Source: an uncultured Gemmatimonadales bacterium
Lineage (GTDB): Bacteria > Gemmatimonadota > Gemmatimonadetes > Longimicrobiales > Gaopeijiaceae
DNA length: 64,000 nucleotides
NCBI GenBank assembly: GCA_963809895.1
Contig: CAWELD010000003.1
Span: 2,240,001-2,304,000 of the forward strand
Reading direction: 5' to 3'
Part shown: piece after piece, positions 1 to 5,434 of the stretch
How the letters are laid out: every line of letters begins with the position of its first letter
How positions within the stretch are numbered: position 1 is the first letter of the stretch
Made by a program: the position numbers and the translations under genes
Notes under the pieces: generated by a model
Databases searched by the model: none
What the model was told of the DNA's origin: nothing
What the model saw: only the letters and a program-made list of their open reading frames with translations

Positions 1-558
1 GTGATCGGCGGGCTTGGGGACCGCACCCAGCAGCCCCTCTCCCACCGACGTGGTGGCCACAGCCCGATGGCACATCGTGCAGTTGGTGGCCGCCGTCATG
101 TGCGACTGGGGATCCCTGCCGTGGCAGGTGAAACACCGGTCCGGCGACAGCGACACCACCGCCATGGTCGGACCACCCTCCGCCACGTGGCACGAAGCGC
201 ACTGGACATCCCGCCCTTCCCGGGCTGCCCGACTCGCGTGGGCCGGATGGTCGAAGCGCAGGAACGGCACCTGCCGCTCCGGAGGCGTCCAGCTCACGCG
301 CCTCTGGTCTTCGCCGTTGTGGCAGTTCTGACAGAGGTCCGGGCTCGGCAGAAAGCGAGCCGAGTCACCGGTGGGGATCCCCGTGTGACATCCCGTGCAC
401 AGGGGGAACAGGCCCTGGTGGCGCTGGTGGGGGAATCCCCTGCGACGGGCCGTCTGCTGCGCACCCGTCTGCTGGGCCGCCACGGGCTCGTGCACCACCG
501 CGACCGCCGGCAGCGCCAGCGCCAGCATCATGATCAGGCGAGAGACGAGGCGTTTCAT
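1..558 (-). CDS. Multiheme cytochrome c, exported (partial; runs off the window start; not in ORF track)
   Basis: Manual translation from ATG at 558 (ATGA overlap with the upstream stop at 555-557): MKRLVSRLIMMLALALPAVAVVHEPVAAQQ signal peptide, then CTGCH, CQNCH, CASCH, CFTCH, CTMCH with FPHQRH and FDHPAH distal-His motifs. Open for 186 codons to the edge. Confidence 0.93.
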   Translation of the reverse strand, partial: MKRLVSRLIMMLALALPAVAVVHEPVAAQQTGAQQTARRRGFPHQRHQGLFPLCTGCHTGIPTGDSARFLPSPDLCQNCHNGEDQRRVSWTPPERQVPFLRFDHPAHASRAAREGRDVQCASCHVAEGGPTMAVVSLSPDRCFTCHGRDPQSHMTAATNCTMCHRAVATTSVGEGLLGAVPKPADH

Positions 559-2021
559 CGTGCCCTCCGGCGGAGGCCCGGGTCCTCACCGAATGCGTAC
601 CGGAGCCCGAACCAGCTCCGGTTCTGATTCCAGACATCGTCGGGCGCGTCCCGTCCGGCGTCCTGACGGAGGACCAGGAATCCGCCGTTCAGGCTCACCC
701 GCGGCGACACCTCCCAGGTGCCGTCGAGCCCTCCGCCCACGGCCCGGCCGTCTCCGACCCGGAAGGCCTCGAACTGCTGGAAGCTGGTCCCGGTGAGGCG
801 CAGGCTGAGCGAGGAGAAGGGCTGGTACCGGACCGCGGCATCCACCGACTGCAGGAAGGCCGAGGCCCCCCAGTCGATCCGGTACGAAGCCTCCAGGCGC
901 ACGGCATCCGACGCGCCCCAGAATCCCGTGGCCTCGCCCTGCCAGCCGGTGTCCTCCAGCGGTCGGAAGACCGAGGTCGTGGAGGGATCCCCGTAGCTGC
1001 GACGCGCGAAGGCGAGTTGCACGCCGGTGCCCCGGGACAGGCCTGCGCTCACGCGGATGCGGCCCTCGTGATACGGCACCGGGCTGAAGAAGCCCCATAC
1101 GGTCGACAGCTCGAAGTACGGCACGTAGCGCCGCGCCTCCACCTCGGTGAGCAAACGTCCCGACCAGAAGGCCCGCTGCAGCGTCAGGTGAGCCTTGCCC
1201 ACCCGGTCGAAGGGCACGTCGTAGTCCACCGAGCCCCGGACGCGCACCGCCCACGGCAGCACCGAGGCCATGTCGAGCGACGCACGTTCGCCCACCAGCC
1301 CGGATCGGTCGGCGATGATCTCGCGCTGGTAGCGGGCCGCCATGGAGGTGGCGCCGAGGCGGAAGCCCGCCGCGCCGCCCCACAGATACGCCTCCTGATC
1401 GGGCACGAAGTCCTCGATGCCCCGGAGGGCCTCCCGGCGGGTCTCGCTGAGACCCCTGGCCAGGCTACGGCCTCCGTAGGCCTCCACCCACCAGGTCGGC
1501 TCGTCCCAACGCACCGCGCCACCGTCGAAGCCGCTGAAGCCCAGCCCCGACGGCGTCTCCTGCCGTCCGGCCCGCAGCCGCAGGCGGCCCCGTTGAAGCT
1601 GCGCGTAGCCGACCAGGACGTCGAAGCGGTCGTCGGACAGCGGCCAGGTCAGGTCGCCGGAGAGCTGATCGCGCCCCCGGACCAGGCCCGTGAAGCTGAG
1701 ACCCTGCATCCCCAGTCCCCAGGCCGTGAAGCCCACGTCCTGTGATCCGAGCCAGGCGCCCTGCACCGCATCGGGCCGATAGAAGACGCACGGTGAGGTG
1801 GCGTCGCACTGGACGGCCCGGCCGTCCACGCGAAACACACCGTCGGGACCCTGAACGATCTCCTCGGGCTGGGCCGTGTCGGCCATGATGGGCCGCAACT
1901 CGAAATAGCGCACCGTGGTGCTGGCCCATCCACGCACGCCCTGCCCCGCGAGGGAGCCGGCGCATGCGAGGAGGGTTGCGAGGGCCAGGACCGCCGAACG
2001 GACGGGCCGGGCGGACGTCAT
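555..2021 (-). CDS. Putative outer-membrane beta-barrel (porin) of a cytochrome operon, 488 aa
   Basis: True start MTSARPVRSAVLALATLLACAGSLAG at 2021 (ATGA overlap with stop at 2018-2020). Signal peptide, many alternating Gly/aromatic strands, C-terminal WFGLRYAF strand, no heme motifs. Lies between multiheme cytochrome genes. Confidence 0.72.
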   Translation of the reverse strand: MTSARPVRSAVLALATLLACAGSLAGQGVRGWASTTVRYFELRPIMADTAQPEEIVQGPDGVFRVDGRAVQCDATSPCVFYRPDAVQGAWLGSQDVGFTAWGLGMQGLSFTGLVRGRDQLSGDLTWPLSDDRFDVLVGYAQLQRGRLRLRAGRQETPSGLGFSGFDGGAVRWDEPTWWVEAYGGRSLARGLSETRREALRGIEDFVPDQEAYLWGGAAGFRLGATSMAARYQREIIADRSGLVGERASLDMASVLPWAVRVRGSVDYDVPFDRVGKAHLTLQRAFWSGRLLTEVEARRYVPYFELSTVWGFFSPVPYHEGRIRVSAGLSRGTGVQLAFARRSYGDPSTTSVFRPLEDTGWQGEATGFWGASDAVRLEASYRIDWGASAFLQSVDAAVRYQPFSSLSLRLTGTSFQQFEAFRVGDGRAVGGGLDGTWEVSPRVSLNGGFLVLRQDAGRDAPDDVWNQNRSWFGLRYAFGEDPGLRRRAR

Positions 2022-3787
2022 GGTTTCGTCCCTCCAGGGACGTCGGGCAGCACGTGGCAGACGACGCACTCCCGCCCTGGCTGGTGATCCTGCTGTGCCT
2101 GGTGGCACACGAGGCAGGCGTTCCGCTGCCGGGGCACGCCCTGGAAGGGCGGAGTGACGTGACACGCGCTGCCGGTACAGCCCACGTGTGCGGTGGCGGT
2201 ATGGGCGGATGCAGGCGGCTGCACGTGGCACGAGGTGCACTGCGCCGTCGCCTGATGGTGATCCTCGTGACAACTGTTGCACGCGGTCTGGTCCACCGGA
2301 CGTTGCAGACCGCTGCCGTGGCAGGTCGAGCACTCCACCCGCTGGTGGTTCCCGTGGTCGAACGGCAGCTCCCGCATGATCGGTTGGGGAGCCACGCTCA
2401 GGTCCATCTCCTTGTCGATGGAGAGCGCCGTGCCGTTGAGCGAGCCCGGCACGTGGCAGTTCTGGCACTGGTTCGAGGTCGGACCCTGGTGGTGGCAGCT
2501 CCGGCAGTCCTGGATGCCCTGGAGCTTGACCGCCCCGTGTCGATCCGACGACGAGTGACATTCGGTACAGGCCACGGTGCGGTGGTCGGCGTGCTGGAAG
2601 ACCACCTGCCTGCGGCCCGGGGTCGCCTGGGCAGGGCTCTCTCGCACGGCGACGTCGCCACTGCTCCGGGCGCCGTGTCGATAGAGTCCCGGAGGGATCG
2701 TCAGGTCCAACGTCGCGAAGCGCACCCCCGGCACCGGATCCGACATGGGAACCGCCGCAGGCACCGCCACCGGCGCCGCCGACGCGGTGCGCCCCGGTGT
2801 CGCCGACGCCGAATCCCCTGCTCCGGGCTCACGCCGCTGGAAGATGTCCTGGTGGCAGGCGAGGCAGTCGTCGCCCTGCACGCGGAAGGTGTGCGCCTTG
2901 TGGCAGGTCGTGCAGTCCTCGACGTCGCGGTGGTTGAGCCCGCGATGGAACGGGCTCAGTGTCTCGACGTTGTCGTGGCACCCGGACTGCGCGCAGGTCT
3001 CCACCGCCTGATGCGGCGTGGTCTGCGTATGGGGGTTGTGGCATGTGGAGCACACCGCCCGGTGCGGCTCGTCAGGCGGGATGTCCACCAATGTTCGCAT
3101 GACGTGACACGACAGGCATTCGTTGCTCGTCGGCGCCAGTACGGCCCGGGCCTGCGTGACGCTGGTCTGCGCCTCCACCGGGGCGTTGAACGAATGACAC
3201 GCCACACAGTGGATTGTGAAATTGCCCATCTTGCCCAGCTGGATCTTGACGTCCGTATGACAGCCGGACTGCGCGCAGGTCTCGTCGGTGGCAGCAAACT
3301 GATGCAGTGACGTGGAGTGGCACTGCACGCACTGGAGTCCCTGAAGCGACGGATCGTCGGATTCCAGGTGGACCCGATGCCCCGCGGTGTTGGCGATCAC
3401 CTCCCACTTCTCGGGATCTCCCTCGATGTGGCAGGACGCGCACTTCTCGTTGGGCACCTCGGCGTGTGTCGCCAGCGAGTCCGGCTGCTCGATGATCTGC
3501 GTGAGCGCCATCTGGCTGCGGGCCGCGAAGGTCGGATGGTGGCACGCCTTGCATCCCAGGCCCCGGTGCGCGCTCTGGGCGAACAGCTGATAGGGCTGCT
3601 GCATGAGGTGGCACGACAGGCAGAAGTCGTTGTCGTGCTGTACCCAGTCGTACGTCTGGTAGGCGTAGTAGCCGCCCGAGCCCACACCTGCCGCCCCCAG
3701 CAGGGCGACCGCGGACAGGACCCAAACAGGTCGCCGGGCGGCCCATCCGCGCATGCGGTGGACCGCCCGGCTTATCAACCCGTTCAC
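2018..3787 (-). CDS. Membrane-anchored multiheme cytochrome c, NapC/NrfH-like N-terminal domain; 17 CxxCH + 3 CX4CH
   Basis: N-terminal hydrophobic helix, then NDFCLSCHLM...SAH...CKACH (NapC/NrfH pattern with CxxCHxM). 17 CxxCH counted, plus CAQSGCH twice and CTGSACH. Pro/Ala linker in the middle. Confidence 0.92.
   Translation of the reverse strand: MNGLISRAVHRMRGWAARRPVWVLSAVALLGAAGVGSGGYYAYQTYDWVQHDNDFCLSCHLMQQPYQLFAQSAHRGLGCKACHHPTFAARSQMALTQIIEQPDSLATHAEVPNEKCASCHIEGDPEKWEVIANTAGHRVHLESDDPSLQGLQCVQCHSTSLHQFAATDETCAQSGCHTDVKIQLGKMGNFTIHCVACHSFNAPVEAQTSVTQARAVLAPTSNECLSCHVMRTLVDIPPDEPHRAVCSTCHNPHTQTTPHQAVETCAQSGCHDNVETLSPFHRGLNHRDVEDCTTCHKAHTFRVQGDDCLACHQDIFQRREPGAGDSASATPGRTASAAPVAVPAAVPMSDPVPGVRFATLDLTIPPGLYRHGARSSGDVAVRESPAQATPGRRQVVFQHADHRTVACTECHSSSDRHGAVKLQGIQDCRSCHHQGPTSNQCQNCHVPGSLNGTALSIDKEMDLSVAPQPIMRELPFDHGNHQRVECSTCHGSGLQRPVDQTACNSCHEDHHQATAQCTSCHVQPPASAHTATAHVGCTGSACHVTPPFQGVPRQRNACLVCHQAQQDHQPGRECVVCHVLPDVPGGTKP
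2982..3283. repeat. 20-nt exact direct repeat inside the cytochrome gene (ETCAQSG codons)
   Basis: ccggactgcgcgcaggtctc at 2982-3001 and 3264-3283. Confidence 0.85.
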
Positions 3788-3812
3788 GTGATTACCGTGT
3801 CGTGGCTGTCCG

Positions 3813-5249
3813 TCACTGCGTCGCGCCGACCAACTGGCGCTGGAGGCTCAGGCTGGGCGAGACCGCGGCCAGGCCGTAGTCCGCCTTGACCTGGCGGATG
3901 CTGCCGATGAGCAGCGCTTCCGTCAGGAAGGGGTTGTGGGCGGCAGTACCGCTCATCCGCGCCAGCTCCACGTTGAACTTCGCACCCTCGCCCGTGGTGT
4001 ACCGGTTGTCCGTGGTGCTGAACTCGGACGCGGGCACCTGGTCCACCAGCGCTTCCAGCTCGTCCGCCAGGTCGTTCAGGCGCACGTGAGCTGTGAAGAG
4101 CGCGCTGCGGGCCGCAGCCTCACTGCCGTGGCAGCCAGAGGCGGTGCAGGCACCGAAGGCCTTGTCGGTCTCCTCGCAATTGCCACCGGGCACCGGCACG
4201 CCGTTCTCGTCGAGGCAAGGCGTGGCTTCGAACAGGTGTCCCGCGACGCCCTGGATGAAGACCCCGTCGGCATCCGTGACGTCGAAGGCATTCACGTGAC
4301 AGCCGGCGCACAGCTCGGGGTTGGCCTCGGACCCGTGCGTGGCGATGACGCCGCCCGCCGGGATCTCGAGCATGGGAGGCCACCAGCCGCCCTCACCCAC
4401 CAGCAGGGGACCCTGCGGCGAATGGGGACCACGCGAGGACGTCGGATCCGGCTGTCCACGCTTGTGATGGCACTTCATGCACAGGTTCTCTTCGACGCTC
4501 GCAACGGTGATGGGGAACCGGAGCTGCGCCGTGTTCGGCGACCCGTGCGGATCGTGGCAGACACCGCAGGTGATGGGGAGGTGATCCCCGGCCTCGGCCG
4601 CCTGCTTCTCCAGATACGGATCGTTGATTCCCCAAGCGGCCAACGCGCCCTCGCCCGTGTGGCAGGACTGGCACTCTTCGTTGTCCGCCGCGTGGCTGTT
4701 GACCTCGGCGTGCAGCGACTGGCCCCACTCCTCGACGAACGGGTGGTGGGAGCCCTGGTGGCACTCACCGCAGCCGGTCGTCAGGTCGAGCCCCACCGAC
4801 AACGGCGCCAGCGGCACCGTCTGGGTCGTGGGATTCTCCACGTGGGTCAGGCCCGGACCATGACAGCTCTCACACTGGACGTCGTGATAGCGATCCTCCC
4901 CGGTGGCGTTGTAGCCGGCCGCATCGGTGACCGAGTTACCCAGCTCGTTGACCGTATGGCAGCCCTCGCACACGGCGGAGGCGTGCCCGCTGGCCTGCAG
5001 GCCTTCCCACGCACCGGCGTGCGCCGTGGTGGCCCACTGGGCCTGCGGGCTGACGTGGCAGTTGCCACAGGTCGTCAGCCCCTGATCCACATCGCTGTAC
5101 CCGAGCATTCCCTGGGCCGCCGGGAGAGGATCCGTGAACAGTTCGCGATCACGGAAGACAATCTTCTCATCGGTGCAGGACGTTGCGGCCAGGACGCCCA
5201 GGACCAGCGCGAGGGAGCCGCACGCAGCCCTCATGATTCCTGGTCTCAT
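3813..5249 (-). CDS. Multiheme cytochrome c lipoprotein; 8 CxxCH + 1 CX4CH
   Basis: Lipoprotein signal ...GVLAATS-C. CGNCH, CEGCH, CESCH, CGECH, CQSCH, CGVCH, CMKCH, CAGCH, plus CTASGCH. CxxCH-x7-W-x3-H c554-like repeats and C-terminal AHNP motif. Confidence 0.92.
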   Translation of the reverse strand: MRPGIMRAACGSLALVLGVLAATSCTDEKIVFRDRELFTDPLPAAQGMLGYSDVDQGLTTCGNCHVSPQAQWATTAHAGAWEGLQASGHASAVCEGCHTVNELGNSVTDAAGYNATGEDRYHDVQCESCHGPGLTHVENPTTQTVPLAPLSVGLDLTTGCGECHQGSHHPFVEEWGQSLHAEVNSHAADNEECQSCHTGEGALAAWGINDPYLEKQAAEAGDHLPITCGVCHDPHGSPNTAQLRFPITVASVEENLCMKCHHKRGQPDPTSSRGPHSPQGPLLVGEGGWWPPMLEIPAGGVIATHGSEANPELCAGCHVNAFDVTDADGVFIQGVAGHLFEATPCLDENGVPVPGGNCEETDKAFGACTASGCHGSEAAARSALFTAHVRLNDLADELEALVDQVPASEFSTTDNRYTTGEGAKFNVELARMSGTAAHNPFLTEALLIGSIRQVKADYGLAAVSPSLSLQRQLVGATQ

Positions 5250-5311
5250 CTCTTGTCGCCCCCACCCGGCTTCATCCGGGCCATTCGGGTGACTGTTAGT
5301 TGCTTCGCTAG

Positions 5312-5434
5312 AACGGGTCAGAGGACCCGTTGGGAGGGTGCTTCTAGTATCGCCTCCGTAGATCTACGGATGCAAGGGAGGGCGGACCGTTTTGGCGTCG
5401 GGATTCGTAACCGTTCTGTGAAGGGGATTCCCCT
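5312..5434 (-). promoter_or_regulatory. Putative sigma70 promoter and operator palindromes of the cytochrome operon
   Basis: Minus strand TTGCAT(5375-5370)-N18-GATACT(5351-5346). Perfect 16-bp palindrome TCCGTAGATCTACGGA at 5355-5370. Further inverted repeats AACGGGTC-N4-GACCCGTT (5312-5331) and AGGGGA-T-TCCCCT (5422-5434). Confidence 0.5.

Follow-up and report, generated by a model that had tools for sequence, protein, structure and literature searches.

Does one operon of a Gemmatimonadota bacterium encode the whole route of electrons from the quinone pool to the cell surface? The question is raised by the first 5,249 positions of a 64,000-nucleotide stretch (the window, to which plain coordinates below refer) from an uncultured Gemmatimonadales bacterium, where four neighbouring genes, three for multiheme cytochromes and one for a barrel-like protein, had been proposed to form a complete porin-cytochrome unit. 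The operon is a real, phylum-wide and undescribed variant of the porin-cytochrome machine. It very probably forms a conduit across the outer membrane, whichever way electrons run through it, and is best read as working like the Pcc (porin-cytochrome) system of Geobacter, not like the Mtr system. A path that is complete within the one operon is plausible and forms the weakest step of the argument.

All four genes lie on the minus strand at the positions given in the initial annotation, and their links and heme counts are confirmed by coordinates and motif counts. Gene 1 (3813-5249) encodes a 478-residue lipoprotein with eight CxxCH motifs, one CX4CH motif and a lipobox cysteine at residue 25. 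A spacing of 25 bases separates it from gene 2 (2018-3787), which encodes a 589-residue cytochrome with 20 heme motifs (17 CxxCH and 3 CX4CH). Gene 3 (555-2021) encodes a 488-residue protein with a signal peptide, no heme motif and a predicted barrel fold. Gene 4, for an exported cytochrome, runs off the window edge after its 5' part (1-558). Genes 2, 3 and 4 are joined by ATGA overlaps at 2018-2021 and 555-558. Sequence from beyond the window start, retrieved from the assembled source genome (G000; 11 contigs, 95% complete, with the operon on contig C3), completes gene 4 (G000:C3:2239062-2240558), whose exported product proves to have 498 residues, a signal peptide and 16 CxxCH motifs. It also adds two co-oriented genes outside the window, each joined to the preceding gene by a 4-base overlap: gene 5 (C3:2238676-2239065), encoding a 129-residue TPR-like lipoprotein, and gene 6 (C3:2238197-2238679), encoding a 160-residue monoheme lipoprotein. 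The whole operon consists of six genes with 46 heme motifs (42 CxxCH and 4 CX4CH). Because shuffled versions of the cytochromes (2000 shuffles each) reach at most 2-3 CxxCH motifs, these counts are far above chance. The motif CxxCK does not occur in any of the six proteins, and promoter and terminator scans of the stretch gave no signal exceeding that of shuffled sequence.

The barrel-like, heme-free protein of gene 3 is modelled as a 22-stranded barrel (AlphaFold2, 106 sequences; predicted local distance difference test (pLDDT) 86.6, predicted template modelling score 0.77). Its first strand begins directly behind the signal peptide; one side of the barrel carries long connectors and the opposite side turns of 2-6 residues. 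In structure it is closest to TonB-dependent transporters with 22 strands, matching their barrels but not their plugs (Z 18.7, root-mean-square deviation (rmsd) 4.5, 373 aligned residues), and the alignments start at transporter residues 135-289, past the plug. Identity as a TonB-dependent transporter was rejected because the N-terminal plug domain is missing. Comparison with the MtrB structure gives Z 15.1 and rmsd 6.1. The barrel sequence has no match in Pfam, NCBIfam or the PDB sequences, five distant members of the family have a single weak Pfam match in total, and its closest clusters in the Atlas consist of Gemmatimonadota proteins without names. Gene 3 is predicted to encode a plugless 22-strand outer-membrane β-barrel of a family without a name, and the model leaves a lumen for a cytochrome, as the initial proposal required. 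No Geobacter porin is present in the fold-search lists for the barrel, which leaves kinship possible. The first long loop of the barrel holds a cysteine pair (Cys72/Cys78, window 1788-1808) that is invariant in 106 of 106 sequences and may form a disulfide.

The likely occupant of this lumen is the product of gene 4. Alongside its 16 hemes the protein has 16 conserved histidines outside the motifs, so all-bis-His ligation is possible, as expected of a wire. Its heme-rich residues 54-217 score above the cut-off of PF22113 (MtrC domains II/IV; 44.6 versus 30 bits), and the protein has no match to TIGR03508 (MtrA/DmsE). The C-terminal seven-heme module has unnamed stand-alone homologs of 215-240 residues and also occurs within Myxococcota cytochromes of 370-400 residues, named as Myxococcota/Polyangiales; the remaining matches were Gemmatimonadota fragments, with no named OmaB or OmbB among the matches listed. 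Plasmid searches for OmaB/OmbB-type relatives gave no match. As a lead only, the Atlas neighbours of the module at 0.90-0.95 include a cluster of 230-residue proteins from Thermodesulfobacteriota as well as clusters from Ignavibacteriota and Myxococcota. We take the heme spacing of this module to resemble that of OmaB.

When barrel residues 27-488 were folded with gene 4 residues 325-498, hemes being left out, the complex scored 0.72, against 0.00 for the best of three controls. Of 157 solved complexes 116 pass the mark applied to this score, as do 2 of 215 mismatched pairs; for the alignments used here these figures are approximate. The interface takes in 94 barrel residues, 63 in the long-loop connectors, 31 in strands and none in the short turns, with the strand contacts falling on alternating residues of strands 18-22. 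It includes 30 of the 67 highly conserved barrel positions (Fisher p 7e-7, a value that depends on the alignment used). The hemes near the C-terminus of the gene 4 protein are predicted to sit in the outer half of the barrel lumen and among the long loops. Since hemes are unmodelled and a structure of MtrAB exists, the prediction supports binding short of proof.

Further indication of a close tie between the two comes from divergent metagenome contigs, L123 (4624-6992) and L128 (4719-7558), where a distant barrel homolog (E 2e-19 and 3e-18, reversed-sequence controls being unmatched) directly precedes a cytochrome with 7 hemes in L123 and 13 in L128 and its copy L179. Neither the lipoprotein nor gene 2 is present in the stretch at L123 or L128. 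The existence of such two-gene loci makes the barrel and the seven-heme module look like the core pair.

This arrangement is widespread. From 94 loci confirmed in a genome collection 80 were kept; their carriers are related to one another and so do not give independent counts. By title 79 of the 80 are of Gemmatimonadota type, the lineage that had been guessed from the sequence, and one is an 'uncultured bacterium'; the named barrel homologs belong to Longimicrobiales and Gemmatimonadota. A profile of the barrel matches 133 of 301 genomes sampled across Gemmatimonadota, the source genome included, and a search with the single barrel protein matched 22 of 41 near relatives. The family is patchy, and several complete genomes of the source's taxonomic family are without a match. 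Of the 78 loci having downstream DNA, 76 have a 16-heme gene directly behind the barrel; in the remaining two the cytochrome hemes are in frame with the barrel open reading frame (ORF), and these are read as frameshifts or fusions. A distant set of 20 loci, chosen on long contigs from 19 of the 133 genomes, has a cytochrome immediately after the barrel without exception (20/20), and barrel-linked relatives of this cytochrome with 7, 9, 10, 12 and 13 hemes exist. The lipoprotein gene lies upstream of the barrel in all 60 loci with enough DNA, those lacking gene 2 included, and is duplicated in some; among the distant loci it has the usual position in 16, lies further upstream in two and is not found in the fetched stretch in two. 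Of 63 loci, 55 have the TPR gene and 38 the monoheme gene; 11 of the 80 contain a Rieske gene, often beside a full gene 2.

The lipoprotein of gene 1 resembles OcwA of Thermincola potens and OmhA of Carboxydothermus ferrireducens rather than NrfA. Its profile matches OmhA (6QVM, E 2e-17, residues 91-450) and OcwA (6I5B, E 4e-12), and its model (pLDDT 89.1) aligns with OcwA at VIA Z 18.4 and rmsd 3.3 over 326 residues and with OmhA at Z 17.3. NrfA and ONR come next (Z 13.5-13.9), followed by HAO and MccA (about 9). OcwA and OmhA chains alone reach E <= 0.001 in Foldseek (1.2e-7 and 5.7e-7). Gene 1 shares with them the c554-like and NrfA-like heme modules, the three-helix bundle, which forms its C-terminus, and apparently the His-His motif over heme 2, and like OcwA it has nine hemes. 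It differs in that heme 9 is of the CX4CH type, the second His-His motif is His-Ser/Ala, and a cysteine pair outside the heme motifs (Cys345/Cys358), possibly a disulfide, is invariant in 67 of 67 homologs. OcwA and OmhA belong to the cell wall or S-layer of Gram-positive thermophiles and are not accompanied by a porin, whereas gene 1 encodes a lipoprotein tied to a barrel, with lipobox Cys25 kept in 66 of 67 homologs. According to the available text of PMC6703420, PMC9250108 and PMC7829351, OcwA is a surface terminal reductase of iron oxides and electrodes whose hemes 2 and 5 are open under His-His motifs. Gene 1 is predicted to encode the terminal cytochrome at the cell surface. The lipobox cysteine is followed by an acidic pair (Asp in 64 and Glu in 62 of 67), which presumably resembles the surface-export signal of Bacteroidetes and is offered as a lead only.

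Gene 2 would connect this outer part to the inner membrane. Its protein consists of an N-terminal hydrophobic helix (hydropathy peak at residues 21-39), an NrfH/NapC-like tetraheme domain, a middle heme domain, a linker of low conservation and a C-terminal nine-heme c7-like module. The best PDB match in a profile search is NrfH (2J7A). As in NrfH, NapC, CymA and ImcH, the layout is tetraheme, and heme 1, with the motif CxxCHxM, comes after an N-terminal helix; the methionine (Met62, aligned to NrfH Met49) is kept in 46 of 49 sequences and an arginine near heme 1 in 47 of 49. It differs from these proteins in its 16 additional hemes, its scores below the family cut-offs and an apparently altered Lys82/Asp89 region. 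The gene 2 protein is predicted to serve as inner-membrane input and periplasmic wire.

The source genome holds a second version of the operon with another input. This paralog (G000:C10:1137370-1145579, minus strand) consists, in order, of an 8+1-heme lipoprotein, a 9+1-heme lipoprotein homologous to the C-terminal module of gene 2, a barrel (37% identical), a 16-heme cytochrome, a 9-heme membrane cytochrome, a Rieske protein and cytochrome b. Menaquinone-synthesis-like genes lie nearby. The C-terminal module of gene 2 also recurs as a gene of its own, either replacing gene 2 or preceding a cassette of a 9-heme membrane cytochrome, a Rieske protein and cytochrome b; it shares 40% identity over 182 residues with one stand-alone cytochrome that adjoins a Rieske/cytochrome b cassette. 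Because the C10 paralog has such a cassette where the NrfH-like domain would be, we infer that the outer part is fixed and that inputs of NrfH-like or bc type are exchangeable, joined to it by a shared nine-heme adaptor.

Taken together, the six gene products probably form a single trans-envelope heme wire that would take electrons outward from the quinol pool to extracellular acceptors, for example humic quinones or oxides of Fe(III) or Mn. Quinol would be oxidised at heme 1 of the NrfH-like domain, and the other 16 hemes of the 20-heme protein, on a flexible linker, would span the periplasm to the N-terminal half of the gene 4 protein. The 16-heme protein, with histidines enough for full bis-His ligation, would carry electrons through the barrel, and the lipoprotein on the outer face would pass them on to the acceptor. 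The TPR-like lipoprotein probably acts in assembly and the monoheme lipoprotein as an optional side partner, and the input end appears swappable. An outward conduit of this kind, supporting respiration to extracellular acceptors with gene 2 as quinol input, is moderately likely.

Several observations weigh against this reading, both those that follow here and those taken up below with the alternatives that they favour. The three complex runs scored 0.72, 0.39 and 0.76, so that one falls well below the others, and their agreement may be as low as 9% (shared contacts at least 9%, partner pLDDT at least 53). The complex was folded without its hemes, and since a similar complex, MtrAB (6R2Q), is already solved, its pass may partly reflect likeness. 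The outer-face location of gene 1 is a prediction that goes beyond what sequence can tell, no cultured carrier of the operon was identified, and no result here fixes the direction of flow.

Among the alternatives, the one that survives best keeps the conduit and takes gene 2 to be merely a membrane-tethered periplasmic wire, with quinol oxidised by a Rieske/cytochrome b cassette or alternative complex III; the path within the operon would then be incomplete. NrfH and NapC profiles do score the gene 2 protein, below their cut-offs (PF03264, 18 versus 24.1 bits; TIGR03153, 22.8 versus 134.2). The quinol site appears altered, as NrfH Lys82 falls in an 8-residue gap of the alignment and Asp89 faces an invariant methionine (Met93), while Arg90 of gene 2 aligns with NrfH Lys78. 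The gap leaves the register of this region uncertain. Among 60 loci, 44 have a full-length gene 2, 6 retain no more of it than the C-terminal module and 10 lack it, so that the NrfH-like domain is missing in 16 of 60 related operons. The Rieske genes inside 11 loci and the C10 paralog ending in Rieske and cytochrome b point the same way. On the other side, the anchor, the CxxCHxM heme and the arginine beside it are retained, and the distal position varies in the NapC/NrfH family, being predicted as His/Gln in ImcH in the available text of a preprint that also describes the roles of the NrfH quinol-site residues (bioRxiv 2023.05.03.539133). Of the 10 genomes without gene 2 in the operon, 6 keep a close NrfH-like domain elsewhere, 5 a bc-linked 9-heme protein, and 8 at least one of these input modules; in the remaining 2 neither was found with the queries used. 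We regard this alternative as unlikely. The initial claim of a whole quinone-to-surface path in one operon is plausible, and is weakened by the sub-cut-off scores, the apparently altered quinol site and the absences.

A second alternative makes gene 1 a catalytic reductase of a soluble substrate (nitrite, hydroxylamine, NO or similar), acting in a periplasmic NrfHA-like pair or in detoxification at the surface instead of mineral respiration. It draws on the structural rank of NrfA and ONR behind OcwA, on the NrfH-like gene directly downstream of gene 1, and on the lack of a full-length NrfA in the source genome, where a single 57-residue match was found. The heme ligands point the same way. 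His168/His169 of gene 1, corresponding to the first His-His motif of OcwA, are kept in 62 and 51 of 67 homologs, and His276 in 66 of 67, followed by Ser/Ala instead of His, the correspondence being read from profile alignments. Two of these histidines map to the non-bonding ones of OcwA, leaving seven further invariant histidines for the remaining seven hemes; two open hemes are therefore likely, and an earlier view that all nine hemes are bis-His was dropped. As judged from sequence, gene 1 probably keeps the open hemes 2 and 5 of OcwA, and a catalytic role is possible. OcwA itself reduces nitrite and hydroxylamine in vitro, weakly, with a nitrite kcat of 1 per minute, far below that of NrfA (PMC6703420, available text). 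The Lys-ligated CxxCK heme that marks NrfA is absent, and gene 1 has no match to PF02335 (NrfA family). It also accompanies the barrel and the 16-heme gene in 60 of 60 loci, 16 of them without the NrfH-like domain, a linkage that a periplasmic NrfHA-like pair would not require. A soluble-substrate reductase is distinctly unlikely as the main role of gene 1. The possibility raised at the outset, that the lipoprotein is a periplasmic catalytic octaheme enzyme, fails as regards NrfA membership and stays alive as regards catalysis.

The wire might also run inward, supplying the respiration of oxygen or nitrate with electrons drawn from other cells or from reduced minerals or humics. Porin-cytochrome sets can in principle work both ways (Mto/Pio), and monoheme cytochromes, such as the one that ends the operon in 38 of 63 loci, occur in Fe(II)-oxidiser clusters. 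Two-gene barrel and cytochrome forms exist, bc-type cassettes lie nearby, and the source genome encodes two heme-copper oxidase subunit I genes as well as alternative complex III. Set against this, the characterised close structural relatives of gene 1 are reductases only, and proteins of NrfH, CymA and ImcH type are mainly quinol oxidases (bioRxiv 2023.05.03.539133, available text); inward flow is improbable. That the heme array is a redox capacitor or sensor for oxic-anoxic swings instead of a route of sustained respiration is hardly credible: there are 46 hemes per unit and the carrier has aerobic oxidases, but a capacitor would need neither the dedicated barrel nor the surface-type reductase, both conserved phylum-wide.

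The outward conduit with quinol input can be compared with several known systems. Geobacter-type Pcc (OmbB-OmaB-OmcB) is alike in its clustered genes for a porin, a periplasmic cytochrome and an outer-membrane cytochrome with atypical heme motifs. The available text of Shi et al. (2014, PMC4245776) gives Pcc porins 18-22 predicted strands and periplasmic cytochromes 5-14 hemes, lists clusters in Anaeromyxobacter and Ignavibacterium (IALB_1837-1840), and mentions clusters with inner-membrane cytochromes as well as two-gene forms. The barrel described here, with 22 strands and, in nearly every locus, an adjacent cytochrome gene (76 of 78 close and 20 of 20 distant), falls within this description. 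Gene 4 has more hemes (16) than reported there, some of its relatives having 7-13, and the OcwA/OmhA-fold lipoprotein, the 20-heme NrfH-anchored subunit and the TPR-like and monoheme lipoproteins set the operon apart. Named Geobacter, Anaeromyxobacter and Ignavibacterium sequences are not among the matches listed, and the comparison with Pcc rests on description. Shewanella MtrCAB with CymA (6R2Q) is alike in the predicted cytochrome within a barrel, the lipoprotein cytochrome and an input of the NapC/NirT family. It differs in its barrel, with 28 strands predicted for MtrB (PMC4245776, available text), and in its terminal subunit, the fold of gene 1 being unrelated to MtrC/OmcA; here, moreover, the input subunit is encoded inside the operon. 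PF11854 (MtrB/PioB barrel) has no match on the barrel or anywhere in the source genome, and TIGR03508 scores gene 1 at 39.7 and gene 2 at 17.6, against a cut-off of 192.2 for decaheme MtrA/DmsE. The components are thus unlike MtrA and MtrB, as had been supposed.

The remaining observations concern the surroundings of the operon. The gene 5 protein has sub-threshold TPR matches, and the gene 6 protein scores above the cut-off of PF13442. A Ccm-family match was obtained in the source genome, as was a NiFe hydrogenase, whose large subunit lies ~1.2 Mb away; no link between hydrogenase and operon was seen. About 50 kb from the operon, C3:2185651-2193245 carries three multiheme genes (11, 12 and 15 CxxCH), one of which ends in a cytochrome-b-like part, with a two-component system adjoining; similar pairs with 11 and 12+1 hemes flank the operon in L025 and L027-L030. 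A stand-alone 5+1-heme lipoprotein with a collagen-like stretch (G000:C3:2019400-2020686, plus strand) is a distant gene 1 homolog (E 3.5e-18). A separate, unrelated candidate porin-cytochrome cluster (G000:C3:569291-577662, minus strand) consists of a 545-residue barrel-like ORF (570.6-572.3 kb) unmatched by the operon barrel profile, repeat-rich multiheme ORFs, possibly split by frameshifts, and a 307-residue membrane protein. On contig C10 (G000:C10:1160898-1162400, minus strand) lies a membrane-anchored octaheme cytochrome of HAO-like appearance with a short PF02335 match. Among distant genomes, L103, L108, L114 and L120 have enlarged operons in which cytochrome b and genes with 21+1, 19 and 11 hemes stand on either the near or the far side of the barrel, ahead of it or behind it. 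In L001 an integrase-like gene, a small excisionase-like ORF and a phage-tail-like ORF follow a few kb past the operon (L001:7905-11805); the region adjoins a tRNA-like end and looks like an integrated element.

Contigs from a sediment RNA library (X1) are 95-100% identical over all four window genes, and one covers gene 1 (3797 to 5329); none spans a junction between genes by 31 bases. The contigs have a depth of 152 over gene 1, 9-23 over genes 2-4 and about 6 or less over the neighbours, figures unfit for ranking genes. Two further runs (X2, X3) contain next to nothing of the stretch. The X1 contigs, from one run of one study, show presence in an RNA library, which falls short of transcription, as DNA carry-over is possible.

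The view that this lineage is not known for extracellular electron transfer holds in softened form. The available texts report MtrCAB in one Gemmatimonas metagenome-assembled genome (PMC8805035), three Gemmatimonadota MtrABC operons and widely annotated homologs of Cyc2 and DFE_461-465 (PMC11316326), both as gene reports without experiments there, and ImcH/CbcL homologs (PMC6295460). DFE clusters use β-propeller proteins, not barrels (PMC5815863; PMC7005843, available texts), and PCC groups, some of them having bc1 genes, are listed in the available text of PMC13264449, where Gemmatimonadota are not named. A description of the present operon was not found in the available Gemmatimonadota literature on porin-cytochromes, extracellular electron transfer and iron reduction, of which figures or supplements of PMC11316326 and PMC13264449 may show the genes; the available parts of PMC12545173, PMC6137239, PMC9769843 and PMC13055281 contain nothing on it.

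Porin-cytochrome conduits as such are already known. What is new is a barrel without a family model and a terminal subunit of the OcwA type, which has been characterised so far solely in Gram-positive thermophiles. A broader proposal, to which we give slightly less than an even chance, is that nearly half of Gemmatimonadota species carry an undescribed conduit family that combines an OcwA-fold surface reductase of Gram-positive type with open hemes, a 22-strand barrel of its own and plug-in inputs at the inner membrane, of bc type or NrfH-like, attached via a shared nine-heme adaptor. Gemmatimonadota are common in soils and sediments, and prior reports there, in the texts available, consist of scattered matches of Mtr or DFE type. 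For work on electroactive cells the operon supplies a marker as well as a compact unit that lends itself to testing. Should the function hold, estimates of the organisms that reduce iron, manganese and humics omit a widespread player, and if the broader proposal is true, Gemmatimonadota would be a major and so far unrecognised group of metal- and humics-reducing bacteria in soils and sediments, overlooked by screens for Mtr and Omc markers.

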